Positions 6,884 to 25,926 of a DNA stretch of 64,000 nucleotides are shown here, one piece after another. The first letter of the stretch is position 1, and every line of letters starts with the position of its first letter. Under the pieces are notes generated by a model, which saw only the letters and a list, made by a program, of their open reading frames with translations, was not told the DNA's origin and did no database searches. Location of the stretch: positions 12,340,001 through 12,404,000 of the forward strand of contig CM075989.1 of the NCBI GenBank assembly GCA_038087875.1, written 5' to 3'. The translations under genes were made by a program, and so were the position numbers. Source of the DNA: Malacoraja senta. Taxonomy: Eukaryota.

Positions 6884-9800
6884 CAGTGCCCTCCATAATG
6901 TTTGGGACAAAGACCCGTCATTTATTTATTTGCCTCTGTACACCACAATTTGAGATTTGTAATAGCAAAAATCGTATGTGGTTAAAGTGCACATTGTCAG
7001 ATTTTAATAAAGGCCATTTTTATACATTTTGGTTTCACCATGTAGAAATGACAGCAGTGTTTATACATAGTCCCCACATTTCAGGACACCATAATGTTTG
7101 GGACATATGGCTTCACAGGTGTTTGTAATTGCTCAGGTTCGTAATAATTGCCTCCTTAATGCAGGTATAAGACTGTTCTCAGCACCTAGTCTTTCCTCCA
7201 GTCTTTCAATCACCTTTGGAAACTTTTATTGCTGTTTATTAACATGAGGGCCAAAGTTGTGCCAATGAAAGTCAAAGAAGCCATTATGAGACTGAGAAAC
7301 AAGAATAAAACTGTTAGAGACATCAACCAAACTTTAGGCTTACCAAAATCAACTGTTTGGAACATCATTAAGAAGAAAGAGAACTGGTGAGCTAACTAAT
7401 CGCAAAGGGACTGGCAGGCCAAGGAAGACCTCCACAGCTGATGACAGAAGAATTCTCTCAAATAAAGAAAAATCCCCAAACTGTCCGACAGATCGGAAAC
7501 AAGCTTCAGGAGTCAAGTGTGGGTTTGTCAATGACCACTGTCCGCAGAAGACTTCATGAACAGAAATACAGAGGCTACACTGCAAGATGCAAACCACTGG
7601 TTAACTGCAAAAATAGGATGGCCACGTTACAGTTTGCCAAGAAGTACTTAAAAGAGCAACCACAGTTCTGGAAAAAGGTCTTGTGGACAGATGAGACTAA
7701 GATTAACTTAGATCAGAGTAATGGCAAGAGCAAAGTGTTGAGGAGAGAAGGAACTGCCCAAGATCCAAAGCATACCACCTCATCTTTGAAACAGTGGTGG
7801 GGGTGTTATGGCATGTATGGCTGTTGAAGGTACTGTCTCACTTATTTTCATTGATGATACAACTGCTGATGGTAGTAGCATAATGAATTCTGACATGTAT
7901 AGACACATCCTATCTGCTCAAGTTCAACAAATGCCTCAAAACTCATTGGCCGGCGGTTCATTCTACAGCAAGACAATAATAATAATAATAATAATAGATT
8001 TTATTTATATAGCGCTTTTCAGGACTCAAAGTCGCTTTACAATTGAGAGTCAGGAATAAACAAAACAAAATAGAGCAGTAAGACAGAGGGGGGGGGGGGA
8101 ACATGGGACTAAGGGTATGCAGAGGTGAAGAGATGGGTCTTGAGGCGGGACTGGAAGATGGTGAGGGACTCAGAATTTCGGACCGGTTGTGGGAGGGAAT
8201 TCCAGAGCCTGGGAGCTGCCCTGGAGAAGGCTCTGCCTCCAAAAGTGCAGAGGTTTGATTTCGGAGTGGAGAGGAGACCAGCTGATGTGGATCTGAGGGA
8301 CCGTGAGGGTTGGTAGGGGAGAGGAGGTCAATGAGATAAGGGGGGCCAGGTTGTTGAGGGCTTTGTAGGTGAGGACCAGGATTTTGTAGGTGATCCGGTG
8401 GGAAATGGGAAGCCAGTGAAGTTCTTTGAGAACTGGGGTGATGTGGTGCCAGGATTTGGTGTGGGTAATGAGTCGAGCGGCTGCATTTTGGACCAGTTGG
8501 AGTCGTTTGATGCTGCTGGAATTGATTCCGAAAAGAAGAGAGTTACAGTAGTCCAGTCGGGAGGAGATGAAGGCATGGATGAGTCTTTCAGCAGCGGGGG
8601 GTGTGAGAGACGATCTGATTTTTGCAATGTTGCGGAGGTGAAAAAATGATGTTTTGACAACATGGCGGATGTGAGGCTCAAGGGAGAGGGTTGAGTCAAG
8701 GATCACGCCAAGGTTGCGTGCCTGAGGAGATGGGGAGACAGTGGTGCCGTCGATAGTGAGAGTGGGGTTGTTAATTTTAGTGAGTGTTGATTTGGAGCCA
8801 ATGAGGAGAAATTCTGTTTTGCTACTGTTTAATTTAAGGAAGTTGAGTTGCATCCAAGATTTGATGGCTGATAGGCAGGAGTTGATATGGGAGAGAGGGG
8901 GGTGGTGGGGGGACTTGGTGCTGAGATAGATCTGGGTGTCATCAGCATAGCAGTGGAAGTCCAGGTTGAAGTGACGGAGTATATGACCAAGGGGGAGGAT
9001 GTAGATGATGAAGAGGAGGGGACCAAGAACGGAGCCTTGGGGAACGCCTTGAGTGACAGTGGCTGTGGCAGAGGTGTGGTTATGGAGAGAGATGAAGTGG
9101 GATCGGTTGGAAAGGTAAGAACGGAACCAGCTGAGTGCAGAACCTTCAATGCCAAGGTCCCTAAGTCTGTTGAGCAGGATGTTGTGGTTGACGGTATCGA
9201 AGGCTGCACTCAGGTCGAGGAGGATGAGGATATTGAGGGAGCCAGAGTCAGCAGAGGTAAGGAGGTCATTGAGGACTTTGAGGAGAGCAGTTTCTGTGCT
9301 ATGGAGGGGGCGAAATCCAGATTGGAGGGGTTCGAATAGGTTATATCGAATGATCCCAAACATACTGCTAAAGAACAAAAAGAGATTTTCAAAGCTAAAA
9401 AATGGTAAATTCTTGAGTGGCCAAGTCAATCACCTGATCTGAACCCAATTGAGCATGCCTTTTATATGCTGAAGAGAAAACTGAAGGGGACTAGCCCCCA
9501 AATCAAGCATAAGCTAAAGATGGCTGCAATACAGGCCTGGCAGAGCATCACTAGAGAAGACACCCAGCAACTGGTGATGCCCATGAATCGCAGACTTCAA
9601 GCAGTCATTGCATGCAAAGGATATGCAACAAAATACTAAACATGACTACTTTCATTTACATGACATTGCTGTGTCCCAATCATTATGGTGCCCTGAAATG
9701 AGGGAACTATGTATAAACACTGCTGTAATTTCCACATGGTGAAACCAATGTATAAAAATGGCCTTTATTAAAACCTGACAATGTGCACGTTAACCACATG

Positions 9801-10208: not shown

Positions 10209-10995
10209 CTAAACAATGGGATAAGAATTTTAATTAGGCAATAGTATGCAATTCTGCAAACTGAAGTTATATAAAACATTGATTTTTCAGACTTTGTGCA
10301 AGGCAGCTTTTTACAAATTGCCTCTGTAAGCAAAATACTCATTAACAGGCTCACAGTAAAGAATAGCTTCCACCAAAAAGTACTGTCAAGACCTATAGAG
10401 GTGCTCCAGCTTCAGTCACAGCTTAATTAAAAACAGTATTTGGCATAGTAATTTCAAAAGCAACATTACGCAAGATACCATTCACAAAATTTAATCTTTC
10501 TATTTAAAAACTAAGCAATCTTGTCGGGTCTTGAACAGGTTCCTTGTATTAACGGTTAGTCCTTTCTCAAGCATTCTTTCCTTAAGTAACTGGTTTCTGC
10601 CCAAGACCTTCCCTGAATGTTCTTGTAAACATCAAGCAATACTGCAGCATGTACAATAGCTGGGAACGTATGAAGGGGTATAATCTCTAACAAAGCTTGA
10701 TATCCACTTTTATTTTTGAAACATGTTCTCTTCCAAGCGCGATGACATTTTTTTCAAAAATGCTGTTGCCAGATTAGACGCCTCTTCCTTTCTGGCTCAG
10801 GGTGTGTTTTTGCTTCCAGCGATAATTTGATTACTTTCTCGCTGATAGAATGAGTAAAATTTCCAATTTTGAATGAAATTTTGGGAAACTTTTATCCAGT
10901 GGATCCACTCTAGCTGTCCAAGCTTCAAATGTAGGTGAGAAGGATGGGAGGTCTATGATAAAGTGTTGCATTCCCTGTTGTCAAAGTCACTTTCT

Positions 10996-11049
10996 GGGGT
11001 GGGAGATTGCAACCTTCACGTGGTCCGCCCTGTTTCGACGAATGCAATC
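10996..11049 (+). ncRNA. Minimal HDV/CPEB3-like self-cleaving ribozyme
   Basis: P1 GGGGUGG/CCGCCCU with G1.U wobble; P2 GAUUGCA/UGCAAUC; P3 ACC/GGU; L3 UUCACGU; J4/2 CGAA; P4 reduced to a UUCG loop. Confidence 0.8.
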
Positions 11050-11133
11050 AACCTGGTGTGCACAATCAAATAAGATCAAATAGAACAAGTTGCCCTACAA
11101 CGTTAGGCTGTGCAAGCCATACGCAAGAAGAAG
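10996..11133 (+). mobile_element. Short non-autonomous retroelement with a 5' HDV-like ribozyme and (AAG)n tail
   Basis: TSD agtcactttct(g) at 10985-10995 and 11134-11144; ends CATACGCAAGAAGAAG. Confidence 0.85.
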
Positions 11134-11319
11134 AGTCACTTTCTGATGAGCTATCTGGAAGGTTTTCCACCAAGTGCTGCCAGCACAAAATGATATTAGC
11201 AGAATCTGACAGTTCTTTGGCCATACTCCTTCCCTAATGTGAATGTAATGATACCTTTACATTTATGTTATGAATTAAAATAAAATAATAAAAAGCCTAC
11301 TGAGTTATTCTGTACTCAC

Positions 11320-16032: not shown

Positions 16033-16850
16033 CTAAAAATTACCAATGTAAATTTTAAAAATTAGTATTGTTTTTTTACAAACATCTGTGAACACAAAGA
16101 AGAATCGGAAAGATAGAAATCAGAAAAACTCCTACTACAAATTAATTCTTTACCGGATCCCAGAACTGTGGTCCACTCTTCTCTTCCCCTCACCAAATTT
16201 TCTTATTATAACTTTTAAATTGGTTGTCATCCAATTGTCATGAATTGGACAACCTAATAGCTGAAAGCACAGTTCAGGTTTTACCAGAAGTAACATTTCT
16301 GTAAAATAGGCTCAGGATTTTCTACCTCTTCCTAAATGCAACCAAGGGGCAATGGTTAAATCAGTCTTATTTTTCTTTGTTTGTTTTTTCTGGATATAGA
16401 TGCTGTTGGAATAGCCAGCGTTTATGCCAGTCTTTAATTGCCCTTGAAAAGGTGGAGTGAGCTGCACTCCTGGATACTGCAATCCTTCTGGTGAAGTTGC
16501 TTCACAGTGCTGTTGAACAGAGCAATCTGGGATTCAAACTCAATGAAAGGACATTGGAATGTTTTCAGGTCAGAACAGTGAACAAATTTGAGGGAAACCT
16601 GCAGATGGCAGTATTTTCATGCACCTGCTGTTCCCGTCTTTGGTGCTACAGGGTTTAAGAAATACTGGCAGAGTAGTGTATGCGAGTTATTGTAGTGCAG
16701 TTTGTAGATGGCAAAAATGATAGGCTGTTAACGGGCTATGCATTGACTCAAAGCATGAGGATTTCATTGACATAAGAAACCAAGAGCTACTGTATGATCT
16801 TTCTCCATAAATGAAAACATGCAAACTGGCACTTCCTATCCATACCTTAC

Positions 16851-17381
16851 CGTGTGTCTATTTTGAATCTCTTTGCCTTTGCACACTCAACCAGTGCAGC
16901 GAAGGACTCCTGTCGTGGTGGAGGATGGCATCGTAGCAAGCCTTGGTGAGGCAAGTTCTCAGTAATTTTCTTTGCTACCCAGTGGTTTGCCATAATCATG
17001 CATTCTGCTACAGTCTCATGCACCTCCAGGGGTTGTTTGGGCACCAGGTCACTGATGTTCTTCTTCTCATCTAACTGTACTCGGATTTCAAAATCCTCCA
17101 ACTCTAGGCCACCTTCAAGGGAGCGCTTTGTCCGGGTGCGACGAGCTATTTCAGTCAGCTTCTCCACTGCCCATATCAAGTCATTCAACCTTCTACATTT
17201 TTCTTTCTCTTCAAGCCCTTTGAGCTCAGGGATATCCACAACATTGCGATCCCCATCCAACAAGGCTTGAGCTGCTTCATAGAATATCTTGTAAGTAGAC
17301 CTTATAATGGTTCGTCCAAACCACACTTTAAGGACTTCATAATTAGTTTTATCTAATTCCCATAACACACTGACTGCATAC
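16851..17381 (-). CDS. DIS3L: DIS3L exon 12
   Basis: [11 protein letters not shown]...[16 protein letters not shown]...LLRCHPPP...IDT; 531 nt. Confidence 0.97.
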
Positions 17382-17818
17382 CTTAAAAAGACAATGAATA
17401 TGGACAATTAGCTTGCAGCTTGAAAGATGAATTAAAACTACAAATACCATGCAGTAAATTAATGACAATTAAGAATGAATCTAGCATTCTAGCATAGTTA
17501 AAAGGTGGCCAAAGTCCTGCTGATGTTTAACAATGGTGCCACAATTCCTTCCTGCAGCAGGATTGTGATGGCAACAGGAGTTCAGTGGAAGCAGTAAATA
17601 AAAGTCTGACACTATCCTCTGTAGGAGAGGGATAAAATGAACAAACAATAATTTGATTGAGCATCCTTAGCCTCCTCTCCAGAATTCCAATGAAATGTAG
17701 TTATAAAGTTCCAGCATTAAATATGCAAAGTTTCCTGCTTCCTCTCCCTGGGCAAAAATATAAATACATCCTTCCTTTGTAAAAAATGAGATTGGCTTCA
17801 GATATCATTGAGACTCAC

Positions 17819-17911: not shown

Positions 17912-18345
17912 CTGTAAAGAAAGTAGTTTGCATCAATATTAATTTTGTGGCCAAAATGTATAACAACTTTGCTGAAAAATACTCAAGGGTCACATTGACA
18001 TAACCCAAGAACAGGATCTTGTGGCAGGTGCTCAATACACTTTCATTGTGAACTTGTATATCTAAAGCAATGTCCCCATCTACAGCCTGCTGTGTTCAGG
18101 TCTGAGATCTGAAGCTGTCCAGACCCAGCTGCTTCCTTTGCTTCCCACCAGTAACATTATCGGCGTGACCCAGAATGGCTGCTCTACATACCAGAAAAAA
18201 AAAATGGATATAGAAATTCCAAAAACATTTTCTATAAGTAAATTATCTTTTATTGTAAGGAGTACTTTGAATGAAAATTATTCCTCCTAGGTTTATTTCA
18301 GCTTCGATCATTTGAGCGTTTATTATGATTTTTATTTCGCCATAC

Positions 18346-18593
18346 CTCGATCGAGCCTCCAGATCTGTGTATGAATTTAATTTGACGAAGTGCGTGACAT
18401 CTGCAATATGAACGCCCAGCTCCAAATTTTCATTTGCTAATTTGCGAACAGACAGTGCATCATCCACGTCTTCACAGTCCTTGGGGTCGATGCTGAAGAC
18501 CAGGTGAGTGTTTCTTAAATCCACTCGCCTGCCTTGCTCCTCTGCATCAACCTTCCAGGGATTCTCAGGAGTGTTCACTGGTATTTCACGCAG
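18346..18593 (-). CDS. DIS3L: DIS3L exon 10 (RNB catalytic motif)
   Basis: [13 protein letters not shown]...[19 protein letters not shown]...[10 protein letters not shown]; 248 nt. Confidence 0.97.
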
Positions 18594-19697
18594 CTGAAAA
18601 AGTGGAAAAAACAAGCTGAAATATTTAGATTGGTTTTTATACCTTTATATCCGAACAATATTTTTCTGTTAAAATTAAGACAGAAATACTTTCCCTGGAA
18701 AAGTTACTGGAATGAAGGAAAGATGAACCTTGAGCATCCCTTCTAAGGGATTAGAAGAGAGGATAACTGCCCTTCAGTTTTTGCTCTTCCCCAGATATTG
18801 TGCCTGACATTGGTAAATTCACTACTGTGAACTGTGGAGAAAAAAATAAACGCATTGAGCCACAGGCAGCAATTTATAACACCACTTCTAAACTGCTAAT
18901 GTGGGCGTATGGTTTTTCTCCAGGACACAGATTTGCCACAACTATATTCTGAGACTTGAACGTTCTCTCATGAATTTTCTGAAAGGCTTCAAAAGGCTCA
19001 AAGAGTAGCACGTTTCACAGCAAGTTATTTTCTTTTTTCTAAATATTACTTTTTTTCTCAAAGTGCTGGAGGAACTCAACAGGTCTGAGAGCATCTGTAG
19101 AGGGAATGGTGACGTTTTGGATCAGACAGGAAGGTCCAAATCCGATGTCGTCAGTCCATTCCCTCCATGGATGTTGTCTGACCTGCTGATATTCCAGCAT
19201 CTACAGTTCACTGTGTTTCTACAAATTAGTGGTGTAAATGACGAGTGTGTTTCTGATTGTGGCTGTCAATAATCAGGTATCAGCCAGACATCAGTAGAAA
19301 CTCCACAGTACCCATATTAGCATCTTCACAATGAGGCAGACAAAACCTTGTTTAGAGATGGACTCTCCAACAGTGTTGCACACTCTCAGAAAGGGGTGAA
19401 GTATTAGCCTAGATTTAACATTAAATTGGAGGGTTTGAATGTGACGCTGAAACCAATGAGTTAATTTGATTTGCAACTTTTAACATACAAATATTTTTAG
19501 TGTTTAATAAACTGATAAGCTCCTTCAACACAGAAATCACCATACCTAAACACAATCTCAGCATATATGTGCAATCAATAATTTCCTTTGTCATACATTT
19601 TAAAACTGGATAAAACCACATGTACAATTCAACTGTTTACAACAATAATTAAGGAATCACGTCTCTTACATCACGTACAATGAACACTAAGATTTAC

Positions 19698-24069: not shown

Positions 24070-24808
24070 CTATAAAGAAAAAACCCGATAAACGTGATTG
24101 TAGCATGCTCATCAGCATTTCATTGCTTACAAATACAAAATTGCAAAGTCTGCATAAAATGCAACACAGGATTAAAATATATGTACAGAAAGACTTAAGA
24201 GTAACAAACTGTCACAAATTAGCATCTTTCTGTTGTGAAGGTTTGAATCTACCCAGATGAAAATGTTCATTTACTGGTGCTGGATGATGTTCATTAAATA
24301 ATGCCCAATAGACACAACCAAAACATTCACTCCAACTAGAAACGAATGACTGAAATGGGAAAGATGCCACTGATGAAACTGAGACAGTTCAAATGGGATA
24401 AAGCTTACTAATGGATAGGATAGAACATGTTTAATTCAATTCTACCACTACTATGCCAGTCAGTGATGCCCAATTCATTTTACATTCGAGTCTTTTTGAA
24501 GATACCTGACAATTCACAATCTGTAAGTAAACTTCCAAAATCCCAAAATTAGACCAAATTTTGTCATGTTTTACCCAAGAAAAGCCTTTTTTTGCAAATA
24601 GTTTTATCTTGTTTATTTGGGATCTAAATCCAAGTTTATACTGAATAAATATTTTCAGTAACGCTACTGCCATCTGGGGACAACCATAGGAATTACGAAC
24701 AAAAATATTATACCATATTCCAAATATTGTTTCTCCAGCAGAGATTTTTGCTTATATTGTAGTATTCATTTAACTAATTTGTGTAATTGAAATTAAAAAG
24801 GTTGAATC

Positions 24809-24809
24809 T

Positions 24810-24852
<43 letters not shown>

Positions 24853-25148
24853 CAGAGAGAGAGACAGAGAGAGAGAGACAGAGAGAGAGACAGACACAGA
24901 GAGAGACAGAGAGACACACATAGAAAGAGACAGACACAGAGAGACACACAGAGAGAGACAGACACAGAGAGAGACAGACACAAAGAGAGACAGACACAGA
25001 GAGACAGAGAGAGACAGACAGAGAGAGACACAGAGAGAGAGAGAGAGACAGACAGAGAGAGACAGAGAGAGAGAGAGACAGAGAGAGAGAGAGACAGAGA
25101 GAGACAGAGACACATAGAGAGACAGACACAGAGAGAGAGCGAGAGACA

Positions 25149-25243
<95 letters not shown>
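24809..25243. repeat. (GA)n/(GACA)n compound microsatellite
   Basis: Directly visible. Confidence 0.97.
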
Positions 25244-25246
<3 letters not shown>

Positions 25247-25926
25247 TATAAATTGGCAGACTATCTCTCAACTGTTAGAGACATAAAACAGAGACAGACC
25301 CTCACCAAATACAGGCTAAGTGACCACTATTTGGCAGTTGAAAAAGGAAGACAGAAGAGATTCTGGCAACCAAGAGAAAACAGAATATGCGGCCACTGTT
25401 TGACAGATGAGGTTGAAACAGAGGTGCACTTCCTCATAAAATGCAAAAAAATTGACAAAACAAGGAAAACATACTTTGACAAACTCAATCTGGCAACCCC
25501 TGATTTTAAAGAACTAGATGATACATCAAAACTAAGAATAATCCTTGGTGAAGGAAATACGGCACATCTTGGTGCACAATACGTAACAGCATGCCATAAC
25601 CTGAGAGACGGTGAATGACCAATATGCGCGTATGTACGCACACACTAATTGACATTAACTGACACTAAGAAATTAATATTGAATTGCTAAACTTGCTATC
25701 CTGTTGTACTGCTTACGGCTGCAAGAACGTGTAGCAATCAATAAAGGGCTATAGGCCTCTTGCGAGTTTATGTACAGGGACATATCTATCCATGCACTGT
25801 ACACTTGTATTTATACTTATGCATTTTAAATATGTATGTCATGTTTTATACTTTGGCAATATAACAATGTATTTTTTATCATGCCAATAAAGTTTTTAAC
25901 TTGAAATTGAAATTGAAAATTGAATT
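25244..25926 (+). mobile_element. 3' end of an RTE-X-like LINE embedded in (GA)n
   Basis: ORF end LTKYRLSDH.LAVEKGR...ICGHC...ETEVHFLIKC (CCHC); AATAAA then (TTGAAA)n tail; GA repeats on both sides. Confidence 0.7.

Follow-up and report, generated by a model that had tools for sequence, protein, structure and literature searches.

A Probable HDV-Type Ribozyme Lacking P4 at the 5' End of a High-Copy Short Retroelement in Malacoraja senta

Introduction

Can a mobile element of only 138 nucleotides (nt) owe its exact 5' end to a ribozyme that it carries itself? The question is raised by positions 10996-11049 of the stretch of Malacoraja senta DNA analyzed here, 64,000 nt in length and referred to below as the window. 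A preliminary description, made from the letters of the window, had proposed that these 54 nt form a minimal self-cleaving ribozyme related to those of hepatitis delta virus (HDV) and of the mammalian CPEB3 gene, placed at the 5' end of a tiny retroelement. The results presented here point in the same direction: the 54 nt are very probably a genuine self-cleaving ribozyme that belongs to the HDV type, has a sequence of the CPEB3 type, has lost the P4 helix and forms the 5' end of a non-autonomous retroelement, 138 nt long, of the kind without long terminal repeats (non-LTR).

HDV-like ribozymes head the non-LTR elements R2, RTE, Baggins, R4/Dong and L1Tc, where the cut site is the 5' junction and the element is freed from a co-transcript; RTE elements have no promoter of their own and carry simple-repeat tails (PMC6765202, PMC3774820). 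Two short non-coding elements, NARTc of Trypanosoma cruzi and the R2 SIDEs of Drosophila, combine the 5' HDV-like ribozyme of their parent with a usable 3' end (PMC3383444, PMC3414825). HDV-like ribozymes without P4 are represented by drz-Mtgn, from metagenomes, and by the theta ribozymes of gut phages; in vitro self-cleavage has been described for the latter (PMC10879173). The CPEB3 ribozyme was stated in a 2021 study not to be found outside mammals (PMC8233481).

Results

Boundaries and Copies of the Element

The window copy is enclosed by an 11-nt duplication, AGTCACTTTCT, found at 10985-10995 and again at 11134-11144, and the element therefore comprises positions 10996-11133. Its parts are the following:

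10996..11133, plus strand: complete non-autonomous retroelement of family F, 138 nt with its tail, defined by copies with unrelated flanks
10985..10995, plus strand: 5' copy of the target-site duplication, AGTCACTTTCT, the same 11 nt as at 11134-11144
11050..11124, plus strand: element body, with a predicted long-range stem around a hairpin
11125..11133, plus strand: (AAG)3 tail, of 1-5 AAG units in other copies and of the same type as in the long interspersed nuclear element (LINE) of locus L072 described below
11134..11144, plus strand: 3' copy of the target-site duplication, repeating 10985-10995

A search of the genome (1.94 Gb) with 10996-11136 gave 1,711 first-look candidates, and all 40 of those scored were 96-100% identical to the query over positions 1-139/141. 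Thirty loci were fetched, two of which (L023 and L024) are a single insertion lying in duplicated DNA. The element begins at G1, that is, at the base corresponding to G10996, behind unrelated DNA in 28 of the 30, and the remaining two lack the first 2 or 3 nt. In 25 of the 30 copies an exact target-site duplication, 7 nt or longer, directly abuts G1; the median length is 11 bp. The claim that the predicted cut site coincides with the element boundary was thus borne out by the other copies.

The 54-nt head alone has 5,708 matches in the genome at up to 3 mismatches, and none when the pattern is reversed. The window copy is one of thousands of such heads and not a special locus; it was inserted long ago, and its body carries changes peculiar to this copy. 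Target-site duplications, (AAG)n tails and dispersed copies with unrelated flanks are all present, as expected of non-LTR elements inserted by target-primed reverse transcription. A classical short interspersed nuclear element (SINE) with a head derived from tRNA, 5S or 7SL RNA was considered as a candidate and rejected: region 10940-11160 showed no likeness to any of these RNAs among 4227 Rfam families at E values up to 10, so the element is not a classical SINE transcribed by RNA polymerase III, and its head is the ribozyme.

The body has a structure of its own. In a consensus-like copy it folds at -22 kcal/mol (z -3.08; equaled by 1 of 200 shuffles) into a long-range stem of 11 bp around a hairpin of 7 bp, a structure that corresponds to 11054-11119 of the window and is better preserved in L004:1559-1624. 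As a guess based on this modeled fold, the stem may be a candidate recognition structure for a reverse transcriptase.

Fold of the 54-nt Head

The segments of the head and the pairings among them are given below in their order along the RNA:

10996..11049, plus strand: minimal P4-less HDV/CPEB3-type ribozyme, predicted cut 5' of G10996 (from sequence, Rfam scan and covariation)
10996-11002 with 11025-11031, plus strand: P1, GGGGUGG with CCGCCCU, 7 bp, with wobbles G10996.U11031 (at the cut site) and U11000.G11027
Between the 5' strands of P1 and P2, plus strand: J1/2, GA (from sequence)
11005-11011 with 11043-11049, plus strand: P2, GAUUGCA with UGCAAUC, 7 Watson-Crick pairs
11012..11024, plus strand: P3 and L3, ACC (11012-11014) with GGU (11022-11024), 3 pairs, closing the loop UUCACGU
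C11017 with G11032, plus strand: P1.1, positioned to pair, its G being the single base after P1
11033..11038, plus strand: linker UUUCGA in place of P4, aligned against the 24-41 nt of P4 in families A-D
11039..11042, plus strand: J4/2, CGAA, with C11039 at the catalytic-cytosine position

Together these segments make up the whole of 10996-11049. The helices, the loop L3, the P1.1 pair and J4/2 are all found in the window as the preliminary description had them. P1 and P3 are nested, P2 crosses them and P1.1 lies between L3 and J1/4, which is the nested double pseudoknot of HDV-like ribozymes; the G at +1 is present, with the G.U wobble G10996.U11031 at the base of P1. The likeness to CPEB3 given in the preliminary description is matched by the Rfam consensus RF00622, where UUCACGU, CCCUGU and CGAAU are identical.

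The P4 helix is absent, and the 6-nt linker 11033-11038 stands in its place. P4 is not required for membership among HDV-like ribozymes, of which natural P4-less members exist (PMC10879173). The reduction of P4 had been recognized earlier and was read as a shrunken hairpin, U-UUCG-A. The reduction stands and the hairpin does not: the sister P4-less family has GUUUCCAC at this place, with no UUCG tetraloop, and in comparison with that sequence P4 is better read as replaced by a short linker than as a UUCG hairpin. By every feature that can be checked in the letters, the window element is an HDV-like ribozyme, its self-scission being predicted. By analogy with known members of the class, we infer that it would be catalytically active.

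Sister Ribozyme Families in the Same Genome

A genome search with the Rfam CPEB3 model listed at least 60 matches, at least 39 of them above the 35-bit cut-off, with the best at 64.2 bits. The 28 matching loci that were fetched fall into five families, A to E, and unrelated DNA lies upstream of the G-rich start in all of them. Seven of these sister loci, scanned at gathering thresholds, match RF00622 only, at 37.4-61.3 bits. With the element of the window as family F, the ribozyme heads all families, and the same core is common to A-F:

Family A: LINE of about 3.15 kb, full-size ribozyme with P4
Families B, C and D: elements not defined further, full-size ribozyme with P4
Family E: SINE-like element of about 170 nt, P4-less ribozyme
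Family F: the 138-nt element of the window, P4-less ribozyme
L072:86-3237, plus strand: apparently intact RTE-like LINE of family A, with a P4-bearing ribozyme of CPEB3 type, a 940-aa frame, a tail of (AAG)n and a target duplication of 11 bp
L076, L077, L079 and L084, about 500-570: copies of family C, near the mammalian CPEB3 consensus, including P2 and P4 (GUCAGAUUCU...GAAUCUGCGAAU)
L083, L085 and L089-L094, match from 501 onward (L083, L089, L092 and L093 on the minus strand): copies of family E, ending in GATAAG(AAG)n

The LINE at L072 encodes a single 940-aa frame with the domains Exo_endo_phos (apurinic endonuclease, APE) and RVT_1 (reverse transcriptase, RT), and its first ATG lies about 30 nt past the ribozyme. 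Its last bases are ...ACGAAAAGAAGAAGAAG, and the target duplication ACAGAACAAAA lies on either side of it. The size of about 3.15 kb, the single APE+RT frame and the simple-repeat tail are those of an RTE element, an assignment judged by architecture and not by phylogeny; the protein atlas label for its product is "reverse transcriptase, Chordata" only. Two other copies of family A, L073 and L074, have broken frames.

Family E is a second P4-less family. Its ribozyme reads, segment by segment, GGGG(U/C)C, AA, GGAAAGA, GCG, UUCACGU, CGC, GGCCC(C)U, G, UUUCCAC, CAA and UCUUUCC, and it reaches 35-44 bits on the Rfam CPEB3 model despite having no P4. Target duplications were seen by eye in 7 of 8 copies, and the core has 2,290 genomic matches at up to 2 mismatches in 27 nt. 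Its linker differs in sequence from that of family F and is of the same length class.

In family C, five copies share only the ribozyme and about 35 nt more (ACCACACCACACACUGUAUUCAUCACU...). A genome search with a family C copy and its downstream DNA picked up nothing except an unrelated repeat, at 98-217 of the query. An A/C-rich string directly after the 3' strand of P2 (11050-11053 in the window) was also observed in all six families: ACCAC in B-E, AAACAC in A and AACC in F.

Covariation Among the Families and Evidence for and Against Catalysis

Alignments were built from natural copies, with no consensus row, in sets of 19 and 33 rows. The 33-row set omits three of the 28 fetched loci (L080, L082 and L087, truncated or garbled), and its family F rows are the window and 7 chosen copies. 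In these 33 rows from six families, 93.2% of the cells are paired; sliding the partners by 1-3 columns lowers the figure to 34-45%. Of the 27 pairs, 18 have changed on both sides, and the covariation score was reached by 0 of 500 column shuffles. The copies are decayed relics. Related sequences can beat shuffles without any structure, and the slid controls are the fairer comparison. The 19-row set gave 91.2% of cells paired, and again 18 of 27 pairs changed on both sides.

All three helices contribute to this result in the 33 rows. P1 (columns 1-7 with 31-37) is 89.5% paired, with 3 pairs changed on both sides; P2 (columns 10-16 with 73-79) is 96.1% paired, with 6 such pairs; and P3 is 94.8% paired, with 2 of its 3 pairs changed in this way. 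The C-G pair of P1.1 is retained in 32 of 32 distinct rows, the pair at the cut site is G.U in 17 of the 20 cells with letters, and the catalytic-cytosine column of J4/2 holds C in at least 90% of rows across families. Covariation across copies had been named at the outset as a check on the fold, and the outcome is that P1, P2 and P3 covary among the families, with L3, the pair of P1.1 and the cytosine of J4/2 held constant.

Family F is the source of many of the compensations, differing from the other families at positions 5-7 of P1, at six P2 pairs and at two P3 pairs. Families E and F have the common layout CCCUG-UUUC-NAC-NAA, yet 5 of 7 P2 pairs and 2 of 3 P3 pairs differ between them, with both sides changed. 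The helices of these two families have diverged and still pair, which argues that the P4-less form has been kept through divergence, unlike a dead relic.

Several results weigh against a working ribozyme in the window and concern the fold itself, the alignments and the state of single copies. A descriptor of the HDV type, which requires 7 bp in P1, 3 bp in P3 and 7 bp or more in P2, a G.U pair where the cut would fall, a G following the 3' strand of P1 and C..AA ahead of the 3' strand of P2, matches 20 of 615 dinucleotide shuffles of the window, or about 0.03 per 64 kb. The nested minimum free energy fold consists of P1 and P3 at -12.4 kcal/mol, with a z score of +0.92, and 168 of 200 shuffles are as stable. 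No Rfam family reached its gathering score on the whole window. A scan of 58 nt against the 4227 families gave as the best match RF02682, end to end, at 14.4 bits (E 0.49), and as the second RF00622 at 11 bits (E 0.89); that the two best models are both of the HDV type speaks against chance, but the scores are far below the cut-offs (for RF00622, 11 bits against 35). The rows of the 19- and 33-row alignments were chosen from matches to the Rfam CPEB3 model and are therefore enriched for that fold. A hand count of CpG decay in 100 copies gave, for G>A and C>T respectively, 12 and 5 changes in J4/2, 15 and 8 in the linker, and 14 and 10 in the 3' strand of P1. Loss of the catalytic C (5 rows) is thus not clearly rarer in these 100 rows than loss at the control CpGs (8 in the linker, 10 in the 3' strand of P1), and among the stored loci no significant sparing was detected, the counts there being too small for use. 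With no clear sparing of the catalytic C, single copies appear to decay neutrally, with no sign of selection.

Two alternatives draw on these figures. The first is that the agreement with the HDV architecture is a chance match within a repeat. The shuffled windows that fit the descriptor and the unremarkable folding energy speak for it, and the fold taken alone is weak evidence, only mildly unlikely by chance; the case therefore rests on the comparative evidence. On that evidence a chance match is scarcely credible, as the fold starts exactly where the element starts, the core strings are identical to those of the Rfam CPEB3 consensus, and the helices covary with those of five sister families.

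The second alternative is an inactive relic: the element would descend from an ancestor headed by a ribozyme, loss of P4 would have ended catalysis, and the 5' end would come from a start at G1, set by an RNA polymerase II or III promoter of the element's own, or from other processing. Such an origin is compatible with the low Rfam scores of the window copy and with the hand count, in which the catalytic C of individual copies shows no purifying selection. We consider it unlikely. In both P4-less families, of which F has 5,708 matches and E 2,290, compensatory changes preserve P1-P3, and L3, P1.1 and the C of J4/2 are kept as well; the Rfam scan of 10940-11160 at E values up to 10 was negative for tRNA, 5S and 7SL likeness; and natural P4-less HDV-like ribozymes cleave in vitro (PMC10879173).

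As a separate observation, changes at the four CpGs of the family F ribozyme are asymmetric, G>A on the element strand exceeding C>T, when counted by hand, by about 12:5, 15:8, 14:10 and 9:5. Subfamily structure and strand-biased mutation during copying are possible causes of this excess.

A Proposed Role in Retrotransposition

If the head is a self-cleaving ribozyme, its role can be outlined in three steps. A copy of the element would be transcribed within a longer host or read-through transcript. The first 54 nt of the element would then fold and, by analogy with HDV and CPEB3, C11039 would catalyze cleavage 5' of G10996, leaving an RNA that starts at G1. Finally, an RTE-like LINE with a tail of the same type would supply an endonuclease and a reverse transcriptase, which would recognize the RNA at its 3' end, by the (AAG)n tail and possibly also by the body stem, and copy it into a nicked target, with a duplication of about 11 bp. 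As no part of the ribozyme is upstream of the cut, every full-length cDNA would take a complete ribozyme to the new site, and the 5' end shared exactly by the copies would follow from this. The boundaries, the duplications, the tail and the LINE in this scheme are observed, and the partnership between LINE and element is what we infer.

A partner was sought in several ways. Patterns joining the 3' half of the ribozyme to non-element bases had 17 genome matches, all of them copies of the element with internal deletions or rearrangements. The same approach, applied to the last 25 nt of the element, had 16 genome matches, from which no LINE emerged, none of the matches having been followed further. 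In BLAST comparisons with the LINE of L072, the family F element matched at the tail only and the family E element at the ribozyme only. That no LINE was found to share more than the tail with the family F element belongs with the adverse points listed above.

A real ribozyme could also have its main role elsewhere, for example as a structured 5' end used in the second-strand steps of the LINE or as protection of the RNA. The HDV-like ribozymes of R2 and L1Tc also promote translation initiation (PMC6765202), and the position of the first ATG in the L072 LINE, so close behind the ribozyme, would suit such a function. The small elements have no reading frame to be translated, and the predicted cut is the element start in three families, as 5' processing predicts, so that a main role other than 5' processing seems quite improbable.

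The Element in Other Organisms

Sequencing runs from at least six other organisms contain part of the stretch. Contigs from four of them (851, 668, 149 and 11,991) were compared; contigs cannot reveal RNA starts, and the comparison therefore concerns the DNA boundaries. They match 10995/10996-11134 only, and their loose ends at 10994-10997 and 11131-11134 are mutually unrelated, so the element has the same boundaries in those four organisms.

At a threshold of 10% of depth, the ribozyme varies in these contigs at three sites, G11027A, G11037A and G11040U/A. The first converts the U.G pair of P1 to U-A, the second lies in the linker and the third is the second base of J4/2, a position at which the families likewise differ (G, U or C). 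The change 11040 G>U gives CUAA in place of CGAA, the form that family B has; it accounts for 17-46% of the contig depth of the four organisms and looks like a subfamily marker. In the body, T>C at 11057 accounts for 82-92% of depth in the other organisms and converts a U.G pair of the body stem to C-G.

Discussion

The kind of system described here is already known from R2, RTE and L1Tc. As in those elements and in Baggins and R4/Dong, the ribozyme is the first sequence of the family F element and the predicted cut is its 5' junction. Family F differs from them in being a 138-nt passenger without a reading frame, in occurring in a cartilaginous fish, and in having a P4-less ribozyme with a core of the CPEB3 type. 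The comparison with NARTc and the R2 SIDEs is closer in size. Those are copies of a known parent with internal deletions, whereas the body of family F has no detectable likeness to the LINE of L072; family F also differs from them in its thousands of copies and its dispersed insertions.

With drz-Mtgn and the theta ribozymes, family F shares the double pseudoknot and the replacement of P4 by a few nucleotides. Those ribozymes lie in microbial or phage DNA, beside tRNAs or with no known role, whereas the family F ribozyme is eukaryotic, heads a retroelement and has P4-bearing relatives in the same genome.

With the mammalian CPEB3 ribozyme (RF00622), the ribozyme of the window shares identical UUCACGU (L3), CCCUGU and CGAAU strings. 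It differs in that it does not lie in a CPEB3 intron, is non-mammalian, multi-copy and mobile, has no P4 and has other P1-P3 sequences, in keeping with its 11 bits on that model. Family C is more similar to the mammalian consensus, its P2 and P4 sequences being also alike, with about 83-85% identity as read off the alignment. P2 and P4 are free to vary in the other families, and this match therefore argues for common descent and not for convergence. The chances seem about even that the mammalian CPEB3 ribozyme is the domesticated 5' ribozyme of an ancient vertebrate lineage of RTE type, one that would still be mobile in cartilaginous fishes and would there have been the source of LINEs and of at least two high-copy P4-less passengers, natural "minimal CPEB3 ribozymes."

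Three aspects appear to be new: a P4-less ribozyme with an evident role in a eukaryote, on SINE-like elements of a vertebrate; passenger elements headed by a ribozyme and present in high copy number in a vertebrate; and, judged by sequence, putative CPEB3-type ribozymes outside mammals. A literature search found no paper tying HDV-like or CPEB3-type ribozymes to cartilaginous fishes; its coverage was incomplete, and an earlier description is possible.

Minimal P4-less ribozymes have previously come from microbial and phage DNA only, with largely obscure roles, and here such a ribozyme would have a clear job. The presence of P4-less and P4-bearing relatives in one genome offers a natural series for studying what P4 contributes. 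The element likewise indicates a route by which a promoter-less sequence of 138 nt may reach thousands of copies with an exact 5' end. Finally, ribozymes on mobile elements of a cartilaginous fish pass the CPEB3 model, so that comparative genomics can be used to ask whether the CPEB3 ribozyme descends from a retrotransposon.

Other Features of the Window

Besides the element, the window contains the following features:

7396-7827, plus strand: fragment of a Tc1/mariner-like transposase
8170-9429, minus strand: fragment of a LINE reverse transcriptase, 419 aa
16850-17407 and 18243-18644, minus strand: exons of DIS3L, a host gene
24770-25290: long simple repeat of the (CT/GA) type

The product of the DIS3L exon at 16850-17407 is 83-85% identical to that of rays, 80-82% to sharks, 79% to chimaera and about 70% to mammals. 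It is closest to ray and shark proteins, and the host is therefore a cartilaginous fish, probably a batoid. The 138-nt element lies on the plus strand about 6 kb beyond this exon and, if it is inside the gene, is antisense to DIS3L.
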